Source: Longimicrobiales bacterium (GTDB lineage: Bacteria > Gemmatimonadota > Gemmatimonadetes > Longimicrobiales > RSA9). From it: 61,590 nucleotides of DNA. The stretch spans positions 1 through 61,590 of the forward strand of contig JBOHRL010000079.1 in the NCBI GenBank assembly GCA_050732695.1, read 5' to 3'. The notes below the pieces were generated by a model. That model did not search any database. It was not told the origin of the DNA and was given only the letters and a program-made list of their open reading frames with translations. Of the stretch, positions 24,525 through 54,082 are shown one piece after another; positions within the stretch are counted from its first letter, which is position 1; every line of letters starts with the position of its first letter. The translations under genes and the position numbers were made by a program.

Positions 24525-27500
24525 TCAGCGCGTCGCCGGCCCGAGGAGCTGGTTGACGCGCGCGGTCAGGTCATCGAGTTGTTGCCTCAGCACCGCATGC
24601 CGTTCGATGGCATCACGCCCGATCTTCTGATCGGTCCGCGCGGTCATACCGGCGAGGTACGAAATGTGGGTCTCCAGTCCGGGCTTGCCGTAGCGGACCT
24701 CCTCTGCGAACAACTCGCTGGCGAGCGCATTGACCTGGCGCAGCGTTTCCGCTCCTTCGCCTGTCGCGTTGGCCAGACGGGTCTGCGCCTCACGCAAGCG
24801 TGTCCCGAGCTGCTCCGCTTCCGCGACCATCGCGCGCATGCGCGTATTGTGCTGGTACTGCTCGACGAGATCGGCGACCGTCGTGCCTTCGGCCGCGATG
24901 CGTGGATCGATCAGCACGTTGAACGGTTGCGTATGTGCAGTGCCATTCACGGTGAGACGCGCCGTGTACTGACCGGGCGGCACAGTGAGCCCGTTGCTGT
25001 GCCGGACATCCCACACGAAGCGGTTGTGACCGGCGTCCTGGGTGACACGGGGGCCGCCGCCGGCGCCGCCGCGCCCGCGGCCGGCCATCATGTCATCGTC
25101 CGGATCGCCGCCGCCACCGCCTCTTCGGCCGCCGCCGCGCCCGGCTGTGGCACCACTCCGGTACGTATTCACGACCTGGCCTCCGGCATCGAGAATGTCG
25201 ATGCTGACACCAGCGGCGGGCGCATTGGCGAAGTAATACTCGATGTTCGGGCCGAGGATGTTGGCGCCGTCGCGCGTGCGGTATCCGTCACGCGGTTTGT
25301 AGAGGTGCACGTCCTGGGTTGCGACCTGCGGCGTGAGCTGGTGCAGCGCGGACACGTTATCCATGATCCAGAGCGAACGACCCTGCGTCACGATGATGAG
25401 ATCCTTGCGGAAGAGCTTGATGTCCTGGATCGGGACGTTCGGCAGGTTACGATCGAAGCTCTGCCAGTGTGCGCCGTTATCGAACGAGATGAACAACCCG
25501 AACTCCGTGCCCGCATAGAGCAGTCCTTCCCGGTCGGGATCCTCGCGCACGACGCGCGTTGGCCAGTCCCCGGGAATTCCGTTGGTCCCATCCGTGAGGC
25601 GTGTCCATGTACGGCCGTAGTCGTCGGTCCGGTAGAGGTACGGCTCGTAATCACCAAGGAGGTAGCGATACACGGCGTAGTACGCAGACCCGGGCCGGTG
25701 TGGTGACGGGTCGATGAACGCGACGCGGCCGCCTTCCGGCATGCCCTGCGGCGTAATGTCCGTCCACGTCTTTCCATTGTCGCGCGTGATGTGGAACGGC
25801 CCGTCATTCGAGCCGACCCAGATGACGCCCGGCTCGAGCAGCGATTCGCGAATCGCGTAGAGCGTGCTGTAGAACTCCTCACCCGTGACATCGCGTGTGA
25901 TCGGGATGCCGCTCGTGCCCTGGCAACATTCCGGATTCGCGGTCAGGTCAGGTGAAATCGTCTCCCACGTAACGCCGAGATCGCGCGTGCGGTGCACGTG
26001 CTGCGAACCGTAATAGAGGACATCGGGGTCGTGAGGCGATACGTCCATGGGCGAGACACGCTGGAAGCGCAGGATCAGATCGCGTGCATCGTTGCCGTAG
26101 AGAGACTGCGCACCGACCCAGTACTGCTTCTCCTGGCCGGTCTCCATGTTCATCACGCCGTACTGCCCTTTGCACGAGCCATATACGATGTCGGGCTTCG
26201 AAGGGTGCGGAATCACGGGGCCGGTTTCGCAGCCGGGCGTATCGCTCCACCAGTCCTCACCCTCTTCACCACCGGTCGCAAGGCTCGACATCACGAACGT
26301 ACTGTTATCCTGCTGCGCGCCGTACAACCGGTACGGGAACGCGTTGTCGGTCCAGATCCCGTAGATCTCGGCAGTTGGCTGATTGCCCTGCGTCGACCAC
26401 GTGCGGCCGCCATCGTACGAGACATTGGCACCGCCGTCATTCGACTGTATCATCGTATTACCATCGACGGGACTGATCCACATGTCGTGGTTGTCGCCGT
26501 GCGGCGTGGGGAATCGTGTGAACGACTGTCCCGCGTCGGTCGACTTGAAAAAGCCTTCCGCACCGGCGTATACGATGTCCGCGTTGGTCGGGTCGGCGGC
26601 GAGTGTGGTGTAGTAGAACGGACGCGTGATGAGCGAGCCCTGGTCGTTGATGAGGGCCCAGGTCTGGCCGCCGTCATCGGAGCGGTAGAAGCCGCCGCCG
26701 GGCTTCGCCTCGACGAGCGCATAGACGCGCGCCGGGTTGTCGGCCGTTACCGCAAGGTTGCCCTTGCCGATGAGGTCGCCCGGTAGGCCCGTCGTGATGC
26801 GGGTCCACTTCTCGCCGCCATCCGTGCTCTTGTAGAAACCGCCCTCGTGCGAGCCGCTGATGATGGCCCACGGCTTCCGTTCGATCCGGTTCATCCATGC
26901 GTAGACGACGTCCGGATTGCCGGGCTGGAGCTCGACGTCCATCGCGCCCGTGCTGTCGCTCACGAACAGCACCTTGCGCCAGGATCTGCCACCATCCGTC
27001 GTCTTGAAGATGCCGCGTTCGGGATGCGGCTTGAACGCGTCTCCGTTCGCCGCCACCCACACGATGTCGGGGTTGGTCGGGTGGATGCGCACGGCGCCGA
27101 TCTGGCCGACATCATAGAGGCCGGCAAACTGCCATGTCGCGCCCGCGTCCGCGCTGCGGTACACGCCGCGCCCAGTCGAGACGTTGCTGCGCAGGCCGTC
27201 GGAACCGGTGCCCAGGTACACGATGTTCGGGTCCGATGTGGCAACGGCCACATCACCCGTCGAGCCGAGCGGGACCTGGCCGTCCGTCACGGCCGACCAG
27301 CTCCCGCCACCGTCGGTCGTCTTGAAGAGACCGCCGCTCGCCGCGCCCATGTAGAACGTTTGCGGCTGCGACGGAACGCCCGTCACTGTCGTGACCCTGC
27401 CGCCGCGGGACGGCCCCACCAGCCGGAACGTGAGCCCATGGAACAGCGACGTGTCGACTGCCGCCATCGTGGGCGGCTCTGCCTGAGCGGCCGTTTGGGC

Positions 27501-27563
27501 GAAGACCGGCCATGGGGCCAGGACCGTGGCCGTGACGAGTGCTGAAAGCAGGAGGCGTCGCAT
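24525..27563 (-). CDS. Sortilin/VPS10-like BNR (Asp-box) repeat beta-propeller secreted protein, paralogue 1
   Basis: Start at the internal Met with signal peptide MRRLLLSALVTATVLAPWPVFAQT (ORF track starts at 27677). Many S-x-D-x-G-x-T-W Asp-box repeats (KTTDGGGSW, RSADAGATW, KTTDGGRSW, KSTDGGEKW, RSDDGGQTW). Gly/Arg-rich low-complexity insert. Confidence 0.8.
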   Translation of the reverse strand: MRRLLLSALVTATVLAPWPVFAQTAAQAEPPTMAAVDTSLFHGLTFRLVGPSRGGRVTTVTGVPSQPQTFYMGAASGGLFKTTDGGGSWSAVTDGQVPLGSTGDVAVATSDPNIVYLGTGSDGLRSNVSTGRGVYRSADAGATWQFAGLYDVGQIGAVRIHPTNPDIVWVAANGDAFKPHPERGIFKTTDGGRSWRKVLFVSDSTGAMDVELQPGNPDVVYAWMNRIERKPWAIISGSHEGGFYKSTDGGEKWTRITTGLPGDLIGKGNLAVTADNPARVYALVEAKPGGGFYRSDDGGQTWALINDQGSLITRPFYYTTLAADPTNADIVYAGAEGFFKSTDAGQSFTRFPTPHGDNHDMWISPVDGNTMIQSNDGGANVSYDGGRTWSTQGNQPTAEIYGIWTDNAFPYRLYGAQQDNSTFVMSSLATGGEEGEDWWSDTPGCETGPVIPHPSKPDIVYGSCKGQYGVMNMETGQEKQYWVGAQSLYGNDARDLILRFQRVSPMDVSPHDPDVLYYGSQHVHRTRDLGVTWETISPDLTANPECCQGTSGIPITRDVTGEEFYSTLYAIRESLLEPGVIWVGSNDGPFHITRDNGKTWTDITPQGMPEGGRVAFIDPSPHRPGSAYYAVYRYLLGDYEPYLYRTDDYGRTWTRLTDGTNGIPGDWPTRVVREDPDREGLLYAGTEFGLFISFDNGAHWQSFDRNLPNVPIQDIKLFRKDLIIVTQGRSLWIMDNVSALHQLTPQVATQDVHLYKPRDGYRTRDGANILGPNIEYYFANAPAAGVSIDILDAGGQVVNTYRSGATAGRGGGRRGGGGGDPDDDMMAGRGRGGAGGGPRVTQDAGHNRFVWDVRHSNGLTVPPGQYTARLTVNGTAHTQPFNVLIDPRIAAEGTTVADLVEQYQHNTRMRAMVAEAEQLGTRLREAQTRLANATGEGAETLRQVNALASELFAEEVRYGKPGLETHISYLAGMTARTDQKIGRDAIERHAVLRQQLDDLTARVNQLLGPATR

Positions 27564-27574
27564 GTTGACTCTCG

Positions 27575-27716
27575 CGGACCGGGAACCATTTCCCAAAGTT
27601 GGCCCGTCCCGATATGCATTTGCCACATCAAGACGCGCGGGCCTCGTGAATCGATGGGCAGATCGTAGCAAATGCATGGACCGTTGGGCAAGGATTGGGA
27701 AATGGTTCCCGGTCCG
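27575..27716. repeat. Perfect 22-nt inverted repeats flanking 98 bp with nested 9-nt inverted repeats; MITE-like element or regulatory palindrome
   Basis: CGGACCGGGAACCATTTCCCAA at 27575-27596 pairs with TTGGGAAATGGTTCCCGGTCCG at 27695-27716. Inner pair TGCATTTGC (27615-27623) / GCAAATGCA (27668-27676). Two ATGCAT palindromes. Sits between the divergent sortilin and HD-GYP genes, 12 nt from the sortilin start codon. Confidence 0.6.
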
Positions 27717-27825
27717 TCTTGACGGGACGACGAAGTTGGGCTAATGCTTTGAAAGCTCCGACCTACCCCGTTGATTCCGGAGCGACCGAGGGCTTGCCGG
27801 TGGAGCGCCGGCGAGATGGTGGTGA

Positions 27826-29352
27826 GTGCCACGACCTGAGGTCGCGCCGGGAGCCTGTCTTGTCATACCCGCCAACCTGGCTATGCGCTGGAAGTCATCG
27901 TTTTCGACACGGATTGCGGCTGCGTACGCGCTGATCGGCAGCACGTGGATTCTGGTCTCTGACCGCATCCTGGCAACGGTTGTGGCCGAGCCGGTGCGGG
28001 TGGCATCCGTGAAGGCCTACGCAGGCTGGATCTTCGTGCTGGGTTCGGCGCTCGTGATCTTTGTCCTGATCGAGCGTGAGTTCCAGCGGCGGCGTCGTAC
28101 GGAAGTCGAGTTGCGCGGGAGCAGGCTGCGCGAGCGTCGCGCGCTGGGGCGGGCGCACGCGGCGCTCGGTGAAGCGGAGCAGGCACGGGACGAGGCACAA
28201 CTGGCGCGCGGCGAAGCGCAGCAGGCGAAGACGGAGGTCGACAGCGCCGGGCAAAGGATCCGCCGGCAACTCGAGCGACTGGCGGCGCTCCGATCCATCG
28301 ACACGGCGATCGCAGGAAACGTCGATCTGCGCGTGACATTGGACATCATACTGGAGCAGGTAGTGACGCGGCTGAGCGTCGATGCGGTGGCGGTGCACCT
28401 GCTCGATCCGGGGACGCGAACGCTGACGCTTGTCGCGGCGCGCGGTTTCCGGAGGTATGGCATGCCGGGCACCCGGCAATCGCTCAATGAAGGACTCGCG
28501 GGCCGAATCGCGGCGGAGCGGACGATGCGGCACATCATGGACGTTCTGGTGGAACGTGACGGGTTCGCATTACGACTTGTCGGTGGTGAGGGATTCCGTG
28601 GATACGCCGGCATGCCGCTGACGACCCGTGGAAAGGTGCGGGGTGTGCTCGAGGTCTTTCAGCGCGGTACGCTCGAACCCGACGACGAGTGGTTCGATTT
28701 CCTGCATGCGCTGGCGGGCCAGTGCGTGATTGCGGTCGAGCATCTGTCGATGTTCGATGGTCTGCAACGAGCCAATCTCGACCTCGCGCTCGCCTATGAC
28801 CGCACGCTCGAAGGCTGGTCACGAGCACTCGAACTGCGGGATTACGAGACCGAGGGTCACAGCCGCCGGGTTACCCGTTTGACCTTGCAACTCGCGAACG
28901 CGCTGGGCGTCAGCGAGGAGGAGCGCGTTCACATGCGGCGGGGCGCGCTGCTCCACGACGTCGGCAAGATGGCCATCCCCGACAGCATCCTGCTCAAGCC
29001 ATCGGCTCTGACCGAAGACGAGTGGCGGATCATGCGCCAGCATCCCACGTATGCGCACGACCTTCTCGCACCCATCCCGTTTCTGCGGCCGGCACTGGAT
29101 ATCCCGTTCTGCCACCATGAGAGCTGGGATGGCAGTGGCTACCCGCGCGGTCTGCGCGGAGAATCGATCCCCATCGCAGCGCGCATCTTCACGGTGGTCG
29201 ATGTGTGGGATGCGCTGACGCACACCCGCCCCTACAGGCGTGCGTGGCCCGAGGGGATCGTGAGGGATTACATTCACTCGCTGTCGGGCAAGCATTTCGA
29301 TCCGGCCATCGTACGGACGTTCCTGTCGATCGACATGAGCGCGGCGGCCTGA
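27826..29352 (+). CDS. Membrane-anchored GAF-domain HD-GYP c-di-GMP phosphodiesterase
   Basis: N-terminal TM helices, coiled coil, GAF-like region, then HD-GYP (ALLHDVGK...HHESWDGSGYPRGL). The start could instead be the Met at 27883. Confidence 0.85.
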   Translation: MPRPEVAPGACLVIPANLAMRWKSSFSTRIAAAYALIGSTWILVSDRILATVVAEPVRVASVKAYAGWIFVLGSALVIFVLIEREFQRRRRTEVELRGSRLRERRALGRAHAALGEAEQARDEAQLARGEAQQAKTEVDSAGQRIRRQLERLAALRSIDTAIAGNVDLRVTLDIILEQVVTRLSVDAVAVHLLDPGTRTLTLVAARGFRRYGMPGTRQSLNEGLAGRIAAERTMRHIMDVLVERDGFALRLVGGEGFRGYAGMPLTTRGKVRGVLEVFQRGTLEPDDEWFDFLHALAGQCVIAVEHLSMFDGLQRANLDLALAYDRTLEGWSRALELRDYETEGHSRRVTRLTLQLANALGVSEEERVHMRRGALLHDVGKMAIPDSILLKPSALTEDEWRIMRQHPTYAHDLLAPIPFLRPALDIPFCHHESWDGSGYPRGLRGESIPIAARIFTVVDVWDALTHTRPYRRAWPEGIVRDYIHSLSGKHFDPAIVRTFLSIDMSAAA

Positions 29353-29479
29353 ACCGATTCCAGGTCCGGCTGCACTCGTATGGCCAGCGGCAGATGCGAG
29401 CGAATCGCACGGTGCGTTGGCCCGAGTCCTGCTGCGTTGGAGTCAGACGTCGAAACGCCACGATCTCGAAACGCGGATC

Positions 29480-30532
29480 ATGCTTCACATCCTGAACGGC
29501 GACTCGACCCGATTGATCCTCGAGCAGACTGATGTGCCCGGGCAGATCGCGGTCTGGACCGATGTCCTGCACGAAGGACCGGTCCCATATGATGAAGACG
29601 TCGATGCGTGGATCCGCCTGCGAGCCCGTTACCTCGCAAGCAACGGGTGGTCGAGCGAGCCAGCCATTCTGTCCTCGTATCGAACCGCACAGTCCGCGTT
29701 CGATTCCTGGTCGGATCATGACGAAATCGTGCTCTGGTTCGAACACGATCTGTACGATCAGCTCCTGCTGATTCGCCACCTTGCATGGTGGCGGCGAGCG
29801 AACCGCGGCGCGACGCGACTGAGCCTGATCTGCATCGGCGAATATCCCGGTATGGAAGACTTCGCCGGCCTCGGCCAGCTGAGCCCGGCGCAGCTGGCCG
29901 GCCTGCTCGATGCGCGCATCCCCGTTTCTGATGAGCAGTTCGATCAGGCAGGAGCGGCGTGGAAGGCGTTCACCTCGAAACAGCCGCTCGCCGTGCAGGC
30001 TCTGATCGATCAGAAGAGACAACCACTTCCGTACCTGGCAGGCGCATTGCAACGAATACTCGAAGAGTACCCTGCAACCGGCAATGGACTGCCACGAACG
30101 GAGCGACAGATCCTCGAGGCACTCGAGCCCGCACCACTCAGAGTCGTGACGCTCTTCCGAGCCAATCAGACGAAGGAGGAGCGCGTGTTCATGGGTGACT
30201 CCACCTTCTGGTTGCACGTCCTTGGGCTCGCCGACGGCGACAACCCGCTCATCGCCATCGAAGCCGGCGCCGGATCGGGGAACGTTTCAGATCCATCCAG
30301 CACCTCCGCCGATGGGCGGGGGAATGGCGCCGGCGCATCGCCAGCCTCCGATGATGACGATCCCACCCACGAGGTTCGACTGACGCCCAAAGGTCGCGGC
30401 GTGCTCGAAGGACGAGCCGATTGGATCGAACTGAACGGCATCGACCGCTGGATCGGCGGCGTCCACCTGCACGGCGCCGACTCGCCATGGCGCTGGGACC
30501 GGAATCGAGGCGTTCTCGTCGCGGCTTCGTGA
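29480..30532 (+). CDS. DUF1835 (plus DUF3658-like) domain protein
   Basis: The N-terminus MLHILNGDSTRLILEQTDVPGQIAVWTDVLHEGPVP matches the conserved DUF1835 start. The ATG at 29480 is in frame with ORF 29417-30532. Confidence 0.65.
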   Translation: MLHILNGDSTRLILEQTDVPGQIAVWTDVLHEGPVPYDEDVDAWIRLRARYLASNGWSSEPAILSSYRTAQSAFDSWSDHDEIVLWFEHDLYDQLLLIRHLAWWRRANRGATRLSLICIGEYPGMEDFAGLGQLSPAQLAGLLDARIPVSDEQFDQAGAAWKAFTSKQPLAVQALIDQKRQPLPYLAGALQRILEEYPATGNGLPRTERQILEALEPAPLRVVTLFRANQTKEERVFMGDSTFWLHVLGLADGDNPLIAIEAGAGSGNVSDPSSTSADGRGNGAGASPASDDDDPTHEVRLTPKGRGVLEGRADWIELNGIDRWIGGVHLHGADSPWRWDRNRGVLVAAS

Positions 30533-30687: not shown

Positions 30688-31158
30688 ATGTCGCAAAACC
30701 GAAACGAAACCACGACGCCGGTCTGTCCGGTCGGCCATGTCGATATCGAGTCCATCAAGCGGGTCACCGGCGCGCGCGCGTGGGCGCTGCGCACCGCAGG
30801 CCTGCTCCTGCTCGGCCTCGCCGCGATCGGCATCGTCCTCCCGCTCATGCCCGCAACGTGCTTTGTGCTCGCCTCCGCATGGTGTTTCGCCCGCAGTTCG
30901 CCGAGGCTTTACCACTGGATGCACCACAACCGCCTGTTCGGAAAACTGCTCCGCGACTACCGCGACCACCGGCTGATTCCGCTCCGCGTGAAAGTCGCCT
31001 CCGTAGCCGTCCTCTGGGTCACGATCGGCATCACGTTCGCGGCAGTTTCCAACCTCATCGTTCGCGTCCTCGTCGTCGCCATCGGCGCAACCATCACCGC
31101 CCACGTCGGTCGGACCGGGAACCATTCCCCAGAGATGGCTCGTCCAGCCATTCAGTAG
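30688..31158 (+). CDS. YbaN/DUF454 family inner membrane protein
   Basis: LPLMPATCFVLASAWCFARSSPRLYHWMHHNRLFGKLLRDYRDHRLIPLRVK matches the DUF454 signature. Confidence 0.75.
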   Translation: MSQNRNETTTPVCPVGHVDIESIKRVTGARAWALRTAGLLLLGLAAIGIVLPLMPATCFVLASAWCFARSSPRLYHWMHHNRLFGKLLRDYRDHRLIPLRVKVASVAVLWVTIGITFAAVSNLIVRVLVVAIGATITAHVGRTGNHSPEMARPAIQ

Positions 31159-31248
31159 CTCCCTTCGCGAGTCATCCGCCGGCTCATCGTGGGTAAACGG
31201 AGGGCGGAGGGGTGACGTCGAAGGAGCAGACAAACGACGGAAGGCGTT

Positions 31249-31839
31249 TTGGGGCGGATCGGCGAAGCGGACGAAGTCGAGGGTCTGGCGCGGCGAGCGC
31301 GGGCCGGCGACGGGCGAGCGATGGAGCGCCTGCTGGCAGAGGTGTATCCGCGGGTCGCGCGGTGGGCGCGGACGCAGGGGCTGGGAGAGGATGACGTCGA
31401 AGATGTGACGCAGGCGGCCCTGATTGCGGCGTATCGAGCGTTGCCCGCGTTCCGCTTCGAGTCGCGATTCGAGACGTGGCTGTACAGGATCGTGCGAAGA
31501 GCGGTGGCAGACTGGCGCCGACGGCAGGCGAGTTGGGGGCGGGAGTCGGTTGGAGAGGTTGGCGCGCTGGGTGTGATGCCCGGGGAATCGGCGGATGAAG
31601 CGCGGCTGAGCCGGGTCGTACGACGCGCGTTCGAAGGGTTGCCGGCCCGTCAGAGGGAAGTCTTCGATCTGGTGGAATTGCAGGGCCGGAGCACGGAGGA
31701 AGTGGCGGAACTGTTGAGTCTGGCGGCGTCGACGGTGCGAGTTCATCTGTTGCGCGCGCGGCGTGCGATCCGGCGTCGGGTGCTGGAGCGAGATGCGGCG
31801 CTAGTGGAGGATCGGTATGGAGTGCAGGTCGTTCGTTGA
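31249..31839 (+). CDS. ECF-subfamily RNA polymerase sigma-70 factor
   Basis: Region 2 (VTQAALIAAYRALPAFRFESRFETWLYRIVRR) and region 4 (LPARQREVFDLVELQGRSTEEVAELLSLAASTVRVHLLRARRAIR). Confidence 0.85.
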   Translation: MGRIGEADEVEGLARRARAGDGRAMERLLAEVYPRVARWARTQGLGEDDVEDVTQAALIAAYRALPAFRFESRFETWLYRIVRRAVADWRRRQASWGRESVGEVGALGVMPGESADEARLSRVVRRAFEGLPARQREVFDLVELQGRSTEEVAELLSLAASTVRVHLLRARRAIRRRVLERDAALVEDRYGVQVVR

Positions 31840-50955: not shown

Positions 50956-51070
50956 CCGGCTCGTTCCACCCGCCTTATTTCTTCCCGGATTCTGACTCGC
51001 AGTGCCATGCCGTTGTGTGACGCGCACCTGCGCATCGCCCGCCGAACTCCCTCGAGAGAGGACGACCATC

Positions 51071-54000
51071 ATGACCGCGACCCACGAACCGCGCCAGCGG
51101 TTGGCTGCGCCGGGTTCTCCGCTCGCCGCTGTAGCCGAATCCGCACGCCCGGCATCCGCGCGATCCGCGCAGGACGGCCACGGTCTTCGAAGCCGGATCG
51201 ACCGGTGCCGCGTCCTGTTCGCGTTGGCCGCGATTCTCGCGGTGCAGCCGGTCATACCTGTGGCCGCTCAGCAGACATCAGCGGCTGCACGCGAGATGGC
51301 GAATGCCGCCATGACTCCAGCGGCTGCGCCGTTCTTCCAGGCATTCCAGTGGCGCAACATCGGTCCCGCGAACATGTCCGGCCGAGTCACGGACATCGAG
51401 GCCGTCGAGGCGAATCCAGCCATCGTGTATGTCGGTTCGGCGTCGGGTGGTGTGTGGAAGTCGACGAACGCAGGCACGACGTGGACCATGACGAGCGAGG
51501 AGTTCGGTACGGGCAACATCGGCGACATCGCGATCTTCCAGCCGAACCCGGACATCGTCTGGGTGGGCACGGGCGAGGCCTGCGTTCGCAACAGCGTGGG
51601 TTGGGGCGATGGTGTGTATCGTTCGATGGATGGCGGCCAGACGTGGAACAACGTCGGGTTACGCGACACGCACCACATCAGCGAAGTCCTGACACACCCG
51701 ACGGATCCGGATGTCGCGTACGTCGCGTCGCAGGGACATCTGTGGGGTCACGAGGGCGAGCATGGAATCTACCGCACGACGGACGGCGGCAGGACGTGGG
51801 AAGCGCTCACGGACGGTTTGCCGAATGACGGAAGGACCGGGGCCAGCGACCTCGTCATGGATCCGACCAATCCGAACATCCTGTACGCCGGCTTGTGGGA
51901 ACGGATTCGTATGCCACACCGCTTCCTCTCGGGCGGGCCAAACGGCGGGATCTACAAGAGCACCGATGGCGGCGAGTCGTGGACCCGGCTCACGAACGGG
52001 CTTCCAACCGGTGACATCGGCAAGATCGGCCTGAGCATTTTCCGGCGTGACTCACGCATTCTGACCGCCATCGTCGAGCATGGTTTTCAGCCGGACGAAG
52101 ACAGCGTAGACTTCGCTGACATGTCGAAACTCGGCACCGGCATCTACCGCTCGGAAGACGGCGGCCAGAGCTGGCAGTACCTGAGCCGTTTCAACAACCG
52201 GCCCTTCTATTACAGCCACATCTGGATCGACCCGAACGAGGCAGCGCGGCTGTACGTGCTCGCCGGCAACGGTCAGATTTCGGAGGACGCCGGCCGCACG
52301 TTCGCGCGTTCGATGGAGGGCATCGCCGGCGACTTCCACGCACTGTGGGTCGATCCCGCCAACAGCAGGCGGTTCTACGTCGGCAATGACAAGGGCGCCT
52401 ACGTCACATATGACGGCGGCGAAACCTTCGTGATGTTCGACAACATGGACATCGGCCAGTTCTACGCAGTGACGGCAGACAACCGTGACCCCTACTGGGT
52501 GTACGGCGGCCTCCAGGACAACGGCAACTGGGGCGGGCCCAGCAACAGCCGGGACTACAACGGCGTTCTGAACGATCACTGGTTCAAGTTCCATTCGGGT
52601 GACGGCTTCCACACGACGGTCGACCCGAACGACTGGCGGACCGTGTACACGGAGAGCCAGGGCGGCAACCTGCGCCGTCTCGATGCCGTCTTCCGGCAGC
52701 AGGGCGAAAGCATCACTCCGAACCCGGAGACCGTCCTGAACCTGGCCGCCGTACTGCCGAATTATGCCGGCGCCGACGACGAGTTGGAAGGGCCAACGTT
52801 CCGCTTCAACTGGTCGTCGCCGATCATCCTCTCACCACACGATTCGAAGACGATCTGGTTCGGCGGCAATTATCTGTTCAGGAGCACCGATCGCGGCGAA
52901 ACGTGGATGATCGCGAGTCCCGATCTGTCGAACGCCGATACGGCGCATATCAATCCGCAGAGCGGCGGCCTGACGCGTGACGTGACTTCGGCCGAAACAC
53001 ATGCCACCGCGATCACGATCTCGGAGTCGCCCATCATTCCGGGCCTCGTGTGGGTCGGTACGGACGACGGCAACGTGCAGGTAACGCGGGACGGCGGCCG
53101 CACCTGGACCAACGTCCGCGGCAAACTCTCCACCGAATCGGAGGGCGTACCGGCGGGTACGTGGGTGAGCCGGGTTGAAGCTTCGTTCTACGATCCGGGG
53201 ACGGCATACGCGACGTTCGATGGTCATCGCATGAACGACTTCCGGCCCTACGTGTTCAGGACCACGGACTTCGGCGCGACATGGACGTCCGTCACGGGGA
53301 ATCTGCCGGCAGACGAACCCGTCTACGTTGTCGAGGAGGACCCGAAGAATCGCAACCTGCTGTACGCGGGAACCGAGTTCGGCGCATACGCCACGCTCGA
53401 TGGCGGCACGACGTGGCATCGCATCAACAACAACCTGCCATCCGTCGCGGTCCACGATCTCATTGTACACCCGCGTGAGGGCGACCTCATCGCGGCAACG
53501 CACGGACGCAGCATCTGGATTCTCGATGACATCTCGCCGCTCCAGCAACTGACGGACGGGATCATGGCCATGGACGCGTACATGTTCAGGAATCGTGTCG
53601 CGACGAAGTGGCGGGCGACCAGCCGGGGTGCGACGCGCGGCCACATGCTCTTCATGGGCAGGAACCCGCTCACCATTGCGCAGGAGTCACCGGAGAACTC
53701 GCCACGCGAGCTTCAGAACTCCGCGGCCATCCACTTCTGGCTGAAAGCCCAGCCTTCCAGCCCGGCGCGCCTCGAGATCACCGACATCGCAGGTCAACAC
53801 ACATTCACTGCTGACATCCAGGCGAGGACGGGTGTGAACAGATACCTGTGGAACATGCACTTCAATCCGCCCCCGCGCGTTGCCGGCGGGCGGGGTGGAC
53901 AGGGCGGCCAGGGCGGTCAGGGCGGTCAGGGCGGTCAGGGTCGTGGAGGCGGACGGGGCGGACAGCCGCAGGGGCCGGAAGCGGGACCGGGGAGCTACAT

Positions 54001-54082
54001 CGTCAAGCTGACGGTGAACGGGCAGACGGTACAGGGCACGGTCGCGATCCGTGAGGATCCGGCATTGCGCGCGGCGAATTGA
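51071..54082 (+). CDS. Sortilin/VPS10-like BNR (Asp-box) repeat beta-propeller secreted protein, paralogue 2
   Basis: ATG at 51071 in frame with ORF 51002-54082. Asp-box repeats (KSTNAGTTW, RSMDGGQTW, RTTDGGRTW, KSTDGGESW, RSEDGGQSW, RSTDRGETW, TRDGGRTW). (GGQ)n low-complexity insert near the C-terminus. Confidence 0.8.
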   Translation: MTATHEPRQRLAAPGSPLAAVAESARPASARSAQDGHGLRSRIDRCRVLFALAAILAVQPVIPVAAQQTSAAAREMANAAMTPAAAPFFQAFQWRNIGPANMSGRVTDIEAVEANPAIVYVGSASGGVWKSTNAGTTWTMTSEEFGTGNIGDIAIFQPNPDIVWVGTGEACVRNSVGWGDGVYRSMDGGQTWNNVGLRDTHHISEVLTHPTDPDVAYVASQGHLWGHEGEHGIYRTTDGGRTWEALTDGLPNDGRTGASDLVMDPTNPNILYAGLWERIRMPHRFLSGGPNGGIYKSTDGGESWTRLTNGLPTGDIGKIGLSIFRRDSRILTAIVEHGFQPDEDSVDFADMSKLGTGIYRSEDGGQSWQYLSRFNNRPFYYSHIWIDPNEAARLYVLAGNGQISEDAGRTFARSMEGIAGDFHALWVDPANSRRFYVGNDKGAYVTYDGGETFVMFDNMDIGQFYAVTADNRDPYWVYGGLQDNGNWGGPSNSRDYNGVLNDHWFKFHSGDGFHTTVDPNDWRTVYTESQGGNLRRLDAVFRQQGESITPNPETVLNLAAVLPNYAGADDELEGPTFRFNWSSPIILSPHDSKTIWFGGNYLFRSTDRGETWMIASPDLSNADTAHINPQSGGLTRDVTSAETHATAITISESPIIPGLVWVGTDDGNVQVTRDGGRTWTNVRGKLSTESEGVPAGTWVSRVEASFYDPGTAYATFDGHRMNDFRPYVFRTTDFGATWTSVTGNLPADEPVYVVEEDPKNRNLLYAGTEFGAYATLDGGTTWHRINNNLPSVAVHDLIVHPREGDLIAATHGRSIWILDDISPLQQLTDGIMAMDAYMFRNRVATKWRATSRGATRGHMLFMGRNPLTIAQESPENSPRELQNSAAIHFWLKAQPSSPARLEITDIAGQHTFTADIQARTGVNRYLWNMHFNPPPRVAGGRGGQGGQGGQGGQGGQGRGGGRGGQPQGPEAGPGSYIVKLTVNGQTVQGTVAIREDPALRAAN
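53895..53955. repeat. In-frame GGNCAG nonamer microsatellite encoding (Gly-Gly-Gln)n inside sortilin paralogue 2
   Basis: GGTGGACAG GGCGGCCAG GGCGGTCAG GGCGGTCAG GGCGGTCAG GGTCGTGGA GGCGGACGG. Confidence 0.5.

Follow-up and report, generated by a model that had tools for sequence, protein, structure and literature searches.

The divergent sortilin/HD-GYP pair and the palindrome between its genes

The window, by which we mean the whole 61.6-kb stretch of DNA analysed here, part of a MAG annotated as Longimicrobiales bacterium (Gemmatimonadota), contains a divergent pair of genes. On the minus strand lies a gene for a secreted Sortilin/VPS10-BNR protein, with a start codon at 27563-27561 and an MRRLLL signal peptide common to the orthologues, and its plus-strand neighbour encodes a GAF + HD_5 protein of the HD-GYP type. 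The DNA between them carries two perfect inverted repeats of 22 nt, CGGACCGGGAACCATTTCCCAA at 27575-27596 and its exact reverse complement at 27695-27716, with 98 bp in between. For such a repeat, 100 dinucleotide shuffles of the window gave an expectation of 0 matches with up to three mismatches. Inside these arms, ATGCATTTGC (27614-27623) pairs with GCAAATGCAT (27668-27677), and both contain ATGCAT. The gap between the left arm and the sortilin ATG is 11 nt long and contains GAGAG, and TTGAC boxes are found outside both arms, at 27565-27569 and 27719-27723. The initial annotation of this DNA had described the outer repeats and their 98-bp spacing, the inner pair with its ATGCAT palindromes, the position of the left arm just upstream of the sortilin ATG beside GAGAG, and the TTGAC-like boxes; all were recovered. 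It had also named the divergent sortilin and HD-GYP genes as flanks, and the Sortilin-Vps10/BNR and GAF + HD_5 domains agree with this. A second Sortilin-Vps10/BNR paralogue (1,026 aa) is encoded at 51002-54082 (+), 3′ of a thioredoxin-like gene, with no copy of the element near it. Coordinates are collected in Table 1.

Table 1. Features of the sortilin/HD-GYP region and of the second, partial copy (window coordinates)
Feature	Position	Strand	Basis and remarks
Sortilin/VPS10-BNR secreted protein gene	24525..27563	-	Pfam, orthologues; upstream region formed wholly by the element, beginning 11 nt before the ATG
Foldback, near-palindromic element, 142 bp	27575..27716	.	Repeat, folding and GC analyses; in the sister MAG at L002:206-347
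Left terminal inverted repeat, CGGACCGGGAACCATTTCCCAA, with small palindrome GGGAA-N4-TTCCC	27575..27596	+	Repeat search
Inner perfect block ATGCATTTGC, partner of 27668-27677	27614..27623	+	Sequence reading, alignment
Asymmetric apical region, site of both sister-MAG differences (27642, 27644)	27624..27667	.	Comparison with the sister MAG
Weak sigma-70-like candidate promoter toward sortilin, TTGCCC-N18-TACGAT, 8/12 matches	27662..27691	-	By eye, inside the element
Inner perfect block GCAAATGCAT	27668..27677	+	Sequence reading, alignment
Right terminal inverted repeat, exact reverse complement of the left	27695..27716	-	Repeat search
HD-GYP promoter-like box TTGACG-N17-TAATGC	27719..27747	+	TTGACG and 17-nt spacing kept in three lineages; 2 nt past the right repeat
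Solo left end, decayed second copy	31111..31162	+	20/22 of the terminal repeat, 31/35 of the first 35 nt, about 40/52 against the left half

The complementarity of the element extends beyond the 22-nt outer repeats into arms of 52 nt that match at 77%. Its 22-nt and 10-nt blocks are perfect, and the intervening sequence has diverged, with indels. The GC content of the element (57.7%, against 64.9% for the window) is the lowest among the intergenic DNA of the window. Folding of the RNA in both orientations, which the initial annotation had proposed, gave a strong hairpin on either strand: the 142 nt fold at -76 to -82 kcal/mol (z about -5.7 to -9), with -76.4 kcal/mol for the plus strand and -79.7 kcal/mol for the minus strand. 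The same sequence folds at -47.8 kcal/mol (z -8.3) as single-stranded DNA. A hairpin of about equal stability on both strands as RNA, and also strong as single-stranded DNA, suggests a palindrome at the DNA level. We sought an asymmetry of G.U versus C.A pairs between the strands as a sign of RNA function in the element and found none that was clear. The Rfam 15 covariance models, run over 27000-28400 at E values up to 10, gave no match overlapping the element.

These results bear directly on the idea that the palindrome is regulatory and arose at this site, either as a hairpin of the sortilin 5′ leader acting on translation or on RNase III processing, or as a pair of operators 120 bp apart, looping the DNA of the divergent promoters. 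We consider such an origin unlikely. In its favour, the stem stops 11 nt before the ATG and adjoins GAGAG, each arm holds a dimer-type site, GGGAA-N4-TTCCC, and perfect blocks set among diverged, indel-bearing spacers suggest constraint on the blocks. Moreover, the RNA in the sortilin sense (minus strand) exceeds that of the plus strand in stability by 3-5 kcal/mol, both in the window and in the sister MAG described below. However, the opposite strand, and likewise single-stranded DNA, folds almost as well, and the Rfam result also counts against a regulatory RNA.

The variable spacer of this lineage is 155 nt long, of which the palindrome occupies 142 nt, leaving 2 nt to the HD-GYP -35 box and 11 nt to the sortilin ATG. 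Hardly any of the sortilin upstream region lies outside the element, which leaves two places for the sortilin promoter, within the element or overlapping the promoter of the HD-GYP gene. We infer that this promoter is now inside the element, the candidate being the minus-strand TTGCCC-N18-TACGAT; a consensus promoter scan returned 0 sites in the element and thus did not report this candidate. With a promoter in this position, the sortilin mRNA would have only the distal half of the element and would lack the full 22-bp stem. Upstream of the right arm no promoter could be identified that would place both arms in one transcript, which is a further point against a leader hairpin evolved in place.

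Other readings of the palindrome were tried and rejected. Integron attC sites have RYYYAAC and GTTRRRY at their extreme ends, stand in a cassette-array context and have IntI nearby. Here the ends are CGGACCG and CGGTCCG, the AAC and GTT lie 10-12 nt inside them, and the window contains no integrase. A sigma-54 promoter and an IHF site were both rejected on inspection by eye.

Comparison with a sister MAG and two related lineages

A sister MAG (GCA_974430005.1, contigs L002 and L008), 99.74-99.87% identical to the window, carries the element in the same orientation with two substitutions (27642 and 27644), both of them apical. These 2 differences in 142 nt, which sit 2 nt apart, compare with a background of 45 in 23.6 kb, and in the sister MAG they create a CACGTG palindrome together with a better apical stem. 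In the minus-strand apical stem, A.G and G.G become U.G and C-G, a change that can be counted in favour of a palindrome shaped in place. The assembly of the sister MAG is interrupted right beside the element: the end of L002 and the start of L008 share about 140 nt within the leader and start region of the HD-GYP gene (window about 27780-27921).

Two related lineages, represented by contigs L003/L004 and L005-L007, have sortilin proteins 84-85% identical to that of the window. The HD-GYP start, its leader of about 140 nt and the TTGACG-N17-TAnnnn box (27719-27747) can be aligned across all three lineages. From the HD-GYP -35 box to the sortilin Shine-Dalgarno sequence and ATG, the three lineages are mutually unrelated, and among them the palindrome is found in the window and its sister MAG only. 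No comparable inverted repeat was detected in the 170-215-nt orthologous spacers of the relatives. The initial annotation had held that absence of the element from the orthologous site in close relatives would favour an insertion. The element is indeed missing in the two related lineages; it is present in the sister MAG, and the whole spacer of the relatives is unalignable, so that no empty site can be defined.

That nothing comparable stands upstream of the orthologous gene in the related lineages weighs against a regulatory palindrome that arose at this site. The initial annotation had offered, as one of two alternatives, an RNA switch or long operator controlling both divergent genes. This reading gained no positive support: the palindrome has no Rfam match, is about equally stable on either strand, is unconserved at the orthologous site, and leaves the HD-GYP promoter and leader outside the element.

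The divergent promoter region of one related lineage contains a (CT)n microsatellite with 18 repeats in one sample (L003:48-83) and 7 in the other (L004:1519-1532). The two contigs otherwise differ at 1 of 4,019 positions (99.975% identical). Judged from these two sequences, the repeat, which lies at the site of the palindrome, looks like contingency-locus variation.

Such variation also enters into a different explanation, in which the 22-bp repeats are recombinase sites and a promoter-bearing 98-bp core flips, switching the secreted sortilin-like protein ON or OFF. We regard an invertible promoter (inverton) of this kind as quite unlikely, even though the geometry is suitable, with 22-bp inverted repeats around a short intergenic segment of 98 bp and 11 nt from the ATG of an exported-protein gene. 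Over 75% of the invertons known are shorter than 300 bases (PMC11602134). The core contains the asymmetric promoter-like TTGCCC-N18-TACGAT, which is weak (8/12) and was found by eye, and the (CT)18 versus (CT)7 difference of the sister lineage suggests a locus prone to contingency-type variation. Correia MITEs have been reported to invert (PMC10969869), which would make an inverton compatible with a MITE origin. On the other side, the orientation is the same in both assemblies (two in total), no recombinase was found among the ORFs of the 27 kb to the left and the 34 kb to the right, a segment of 98 bp offers little length for synapsis, and the core is largely palindromic, so that inversion would alter little. 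More specifically, the element could be a working minimal inversion switch, possibly a domesticated MITE, with a remote recombinase phase-varying the VPS10/sortilin-like protein beside the c-di-GMP phosphodiesterase gene and the (CT)n of the sister lineage serving the same end; this stricter form we find improbable.

Three lineages with three unrelated spacers, one of them having a length-variable CT microsatellite, make the sortilin/HD-GYP divergent promoter look like a hot spot of regulatory turnover. With such a hot spot, environmental Longimicrobiales would offer a setting in which to test whether an exported BNR/VPS10 protein is expressed in a phase-variable manner.

A partial second copy at a rearrangement junction

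A mismatch-tolerant search revealed a second sequence resembling the element terminus, CGGACCGGGAACCATTCCCCAG, at 31111-31132. The resemblance is specifically to the left half of the element (31/35, at a local score of 50 where shuffled sequences score 17 +/- 2) and continues as a gapless alignment over about 52 nt. The left end, the right end and this copy all begin at the identical nucleotide, CGGACC, and their outer flanks are unrelated. Neither a right-end remnant nor a hairpin follows the partial copy: the alignment score was 20 against 18.8 +/- 3.7 for shuffled sequence, and the folding z was +0.9. In all, the 61.6 kb contain a single full copy together with a solo left end, and their terminal nucleotides are identical.

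A DUF454/YbaN-type gene ends within the partial copy, from which come its last 16 residues (GRTGNHSPEMARPAIQ) and its stop codon (31156-31158). The nucleotide homology of this gene to contig L009 ends at about 31118 and resumes at the promoter of an ECF sigma gene. Between these two genes L009 has an extra 4.2 kb, with a TPR gene and a MacB-type gene, that is missing from the window. The break in homology and the missing 4.2 kb together place the solo end at a rearrangement junction. The segments rearranged relative to L009 are 29417-30532 and 31119-31192 of the window. An extra ORF of 371 aa with no Pfam hit is present between the HD-GYP and DUF454 genes of the window in comparison with L009:1-5000.

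The second copy bears on most of the explanations considered here. Its setting, within the 3′ end of a coding region, is unrelated to that of the full element, which counts against a regulatory palindrome evolved upstream of the sortilin gene. Its homology of 35-52 nt exceeds a 22-bp site and is left unexplained by recombination sites alone, which counts against the inverton.

The copy is also central to the suggestion of a local accident that is neither functional nor mobile, in which an inverted duplication or template switch made the palindrome and a fragment of it was copied 3.4 kb away. This would fit the finding of the sequence at two loci only, within 3.5 kb of each other, and the lack of a family anywhere searched. 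The neighbourhood, moreover, is heavily rearranged relative to the relatives, with the extra 371-aa ORF, the missing TPR/MacB pair and the replaced spacer. We nevertheless think an accident unlikely, because homology of the 31111 copy begins exactly at the inverted-repeat boundary, as is expected of a discrete element and not of a random segmental copy. The perfect terminal and inner blocks among diverged spacers, too, argue for constraint or selective amplification.

Finally, the left end could be an ECF-sigma-type promoter, GGGAACC-N17-CGTCC, duplicated upstream of the HD-GYP gene and of the ECF sigma gene, the palindrome then being two such promoters facing each other. The motif is kept in the left half of the element and in the 31111 copy, both copies point to plus-strand genes about 200-270 nt downstream, and the 31111 copy stands upstream of an ECF sigma/anti-sigma pair. 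We judge this highly improbable: the window shows no enrichment of GGAAC-N16-19-CGTC (9 occurrences where 5.2 are expected), the right arm has no -10 element, and the stretch of identity, which takes in the spacer and sequence preceding the -35, is more than a promoter needs. As the main explanation, an ECF autoregulatory promoter was rejected, since the 8 orthologous sigma loci share another motif of canonical spacing and suitable position, GTAAAC-N17-CGTC, and lack the arm motif. In the window, GTAAAC-N17-CGTC is found at 31193-31219 (+), upstream of the ECF sigma gene (31321-31839), and it is kept in the L009-L016 orthologues (58-76% identity). It is probably the autoregulated ECF promoter.

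Searches for a wider family and the probable origin of the element

Further copies of the element were sought in public collections. The representative genomes of GTDB gave 0 matches both in a 20-mer scan and with a paired-arm pattern. In the JGI metagenomes there was one match, within a MarR gene on an unrelated contig of lower GC, which was judged to be chance. The 43 single-arm matches in IMG/VR are about the number expected by a rough estimate and were likewise taken as chance; 7 of them, including all those reaching 18-19 nt, were inspected and lie in unrelated contexts. The plasmid and phage collections contained no copies, and a search of 5.8 billion proteins with the six-frame translations of the element joined into one query, meant to reveal copies hidden in spurious ORFs, gave no hits. 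The further copies for which the initial annotation had proposed a search therefore amount to the solo left end at 31111-31162, with none beyond chance in the public collections. MAG assemblies tend to lose repeats.

Among the approximately 45 ORFs of the window, judged by Pfam scan or from precomputed Pfam annotation of the sister-MAG contigs, none encodes a transposase, a recombinase, a RAYT or a Y1 transposase, and no IS with matching ends was found. There is no target-site duplication: the left flank ends in GACTCTCG (...CTCTCG), the right flank begins with TCTTGACG (TCTTGA...), and no direct repeat of at least 2 bp abuts the ends of the element. The TTGAC present on both sides is offset by 5 nt and 2 nt, respectively. 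A literature search found no paper on MITE-like elements in Gemmatimonadota.

Several known families invite comparison. The terminal inverted repeats of Correia elements, the MITEs of Neisseria, are about 26 bp long and their TA target is duplicated; the ERIC/IRU palindrome of the Enterobacteriaceae is about 127 bp long; and REPs typically start with a GTAG-type tetranucleotide. Like the element, Correia elements are small (about 100-200 bp) and non-coding, have terminal inverted repeats and lie immediately upstream of genes. They can donate sigma-70-like promoters, and their co-transcribed hairpins are cleaved by RNase III; as noted above, inversion has also been reported (PMC10969869). However, they occur in more than 100 copies per genome with a target duplication, whereas here one full copy and one solo end were seen, with no duplication; there is also no sequence similarity, and the phylum is a different one, Gemmatimonadota.

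ERIC/IRU sequences share with the element a whole-length imperfect palindrome and an intergenic or UTR position. Their copy number ranges from a few to hundreds, and they insert at gene 3′ ends and occasionally inside genes (PMC10969869). ERIC is nevertheless a widespread multi-genome family, while the element was found in one species-level lineage and shows no sequence similarity to it. REPINs, which are non-autonomous and about 100 nt long, resemble the element in having two inverted short repeats with small palindromes, a spacer and a hairpin (PMC3116915, PMC3337134). They form large populations with a single-copy RAYT gene (PMC8049555). The element has a REPIN doublet-like hairpin, but no RAYT (REP-associated tyrosine transposase) accompanies it in the window and its arms have no GTAG-type 5′ motif. 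In invertible promoters such as fimS, the Bacteroides polysaccharide promoters and the Clostridioides difficile switches, inverted repeats likewise surround a short upstream segment. Those repeats measure 9-30 bp, and the segment between them carries a promoter and precedes genes whose products are secreted or displayed at the surface (PMC11602134). The element differs from them in showing no orientation polymorphism (in two assemblies), in having no nearby recombinase and in its palindromic core.

Taken together, the perfect 22-bp ends, the three termini at the same base, the restriction to one lineage, the breakpoint copy that re-tails a gene and the lowish GC lead us to favour, tentatively, a low-copy, non-autonomous, MITE-like foldback element, within which the promoter and leader of the sortilin gene now lie or by which they are influenced. 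The element is 142 bp long, has no internal ORF with its own start and stop, and ends in perfect 22-bp repeats; reported ranges for MITEs are 50-800 bp, with terminal repeats of at least 10-15 bp (PMC11602168). Bacterial MITEs with 1-22 copies per genome are documented, as are promoter donation, 3′-end insertions and ORF fusions (PMC10969869). The MITE alternative of the initial annotation thus fared well as regards small size, absence of coding capacity, 22-bp repeats, lineage specificity and a truncated copy; it fared poorly in that neither a target-site duplication nor a multi-copy family was demonstrated. Membership of the MITEs is not established, and the test for a target-site duplication came out against it. 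Almost no ancestral spacer is left on either side of the element, which is not what a clean insertion leaves, and one has to suppose that sequence was replaced or that a deletion took place with it.

On the MITE-like reading, a foldback element would have entered this Longimicrobiales lineage by past transposition, presumably with a transposase from elsewhere in a genome acting on it in trans. It would then have filled the entire sortilin promoter and leader region, where the conserved promoter of the HD-GYP gene directly adjoins it. The DUF454 gene may have received a second insertion at its 3′ end that was later truncated through rearrangement, and the leftover solo left end would give that gene its new C-terminal tail and stop codon. 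If this is true, the element would be a small case, from Gemmatimonadota, in which mobile DNA has rewired a promoter and given a gene a new tail, helpful for annotation and unsurprising.

Beside the element, the 5′ leader of the HD-GYP gene is itself conserved in the three lineages (window 27742-27886 (+), L004:1333-1480 (-) and L005:1603-1752 (-)). It contains an invariant block, GCTCCGACCTACCCCGTT (27755-27772), which is extended in the window by GATTCCGGAGC (27773-27783); in this latter segment the relatives differ by a 1-nt indel and one substitution. No Rfam match was found for the leader. A long-range stem can be formed between TTCCGGAGCGACC and GGTCGCGCCGGGA, and the RNAalifold consensus of the three sequences has compensatory changes in 7 of its 35 pairs. 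The conserved sequence is a candidate for a new cis-regulatory leader of a c-di-GMP phosphodiesterase gene.
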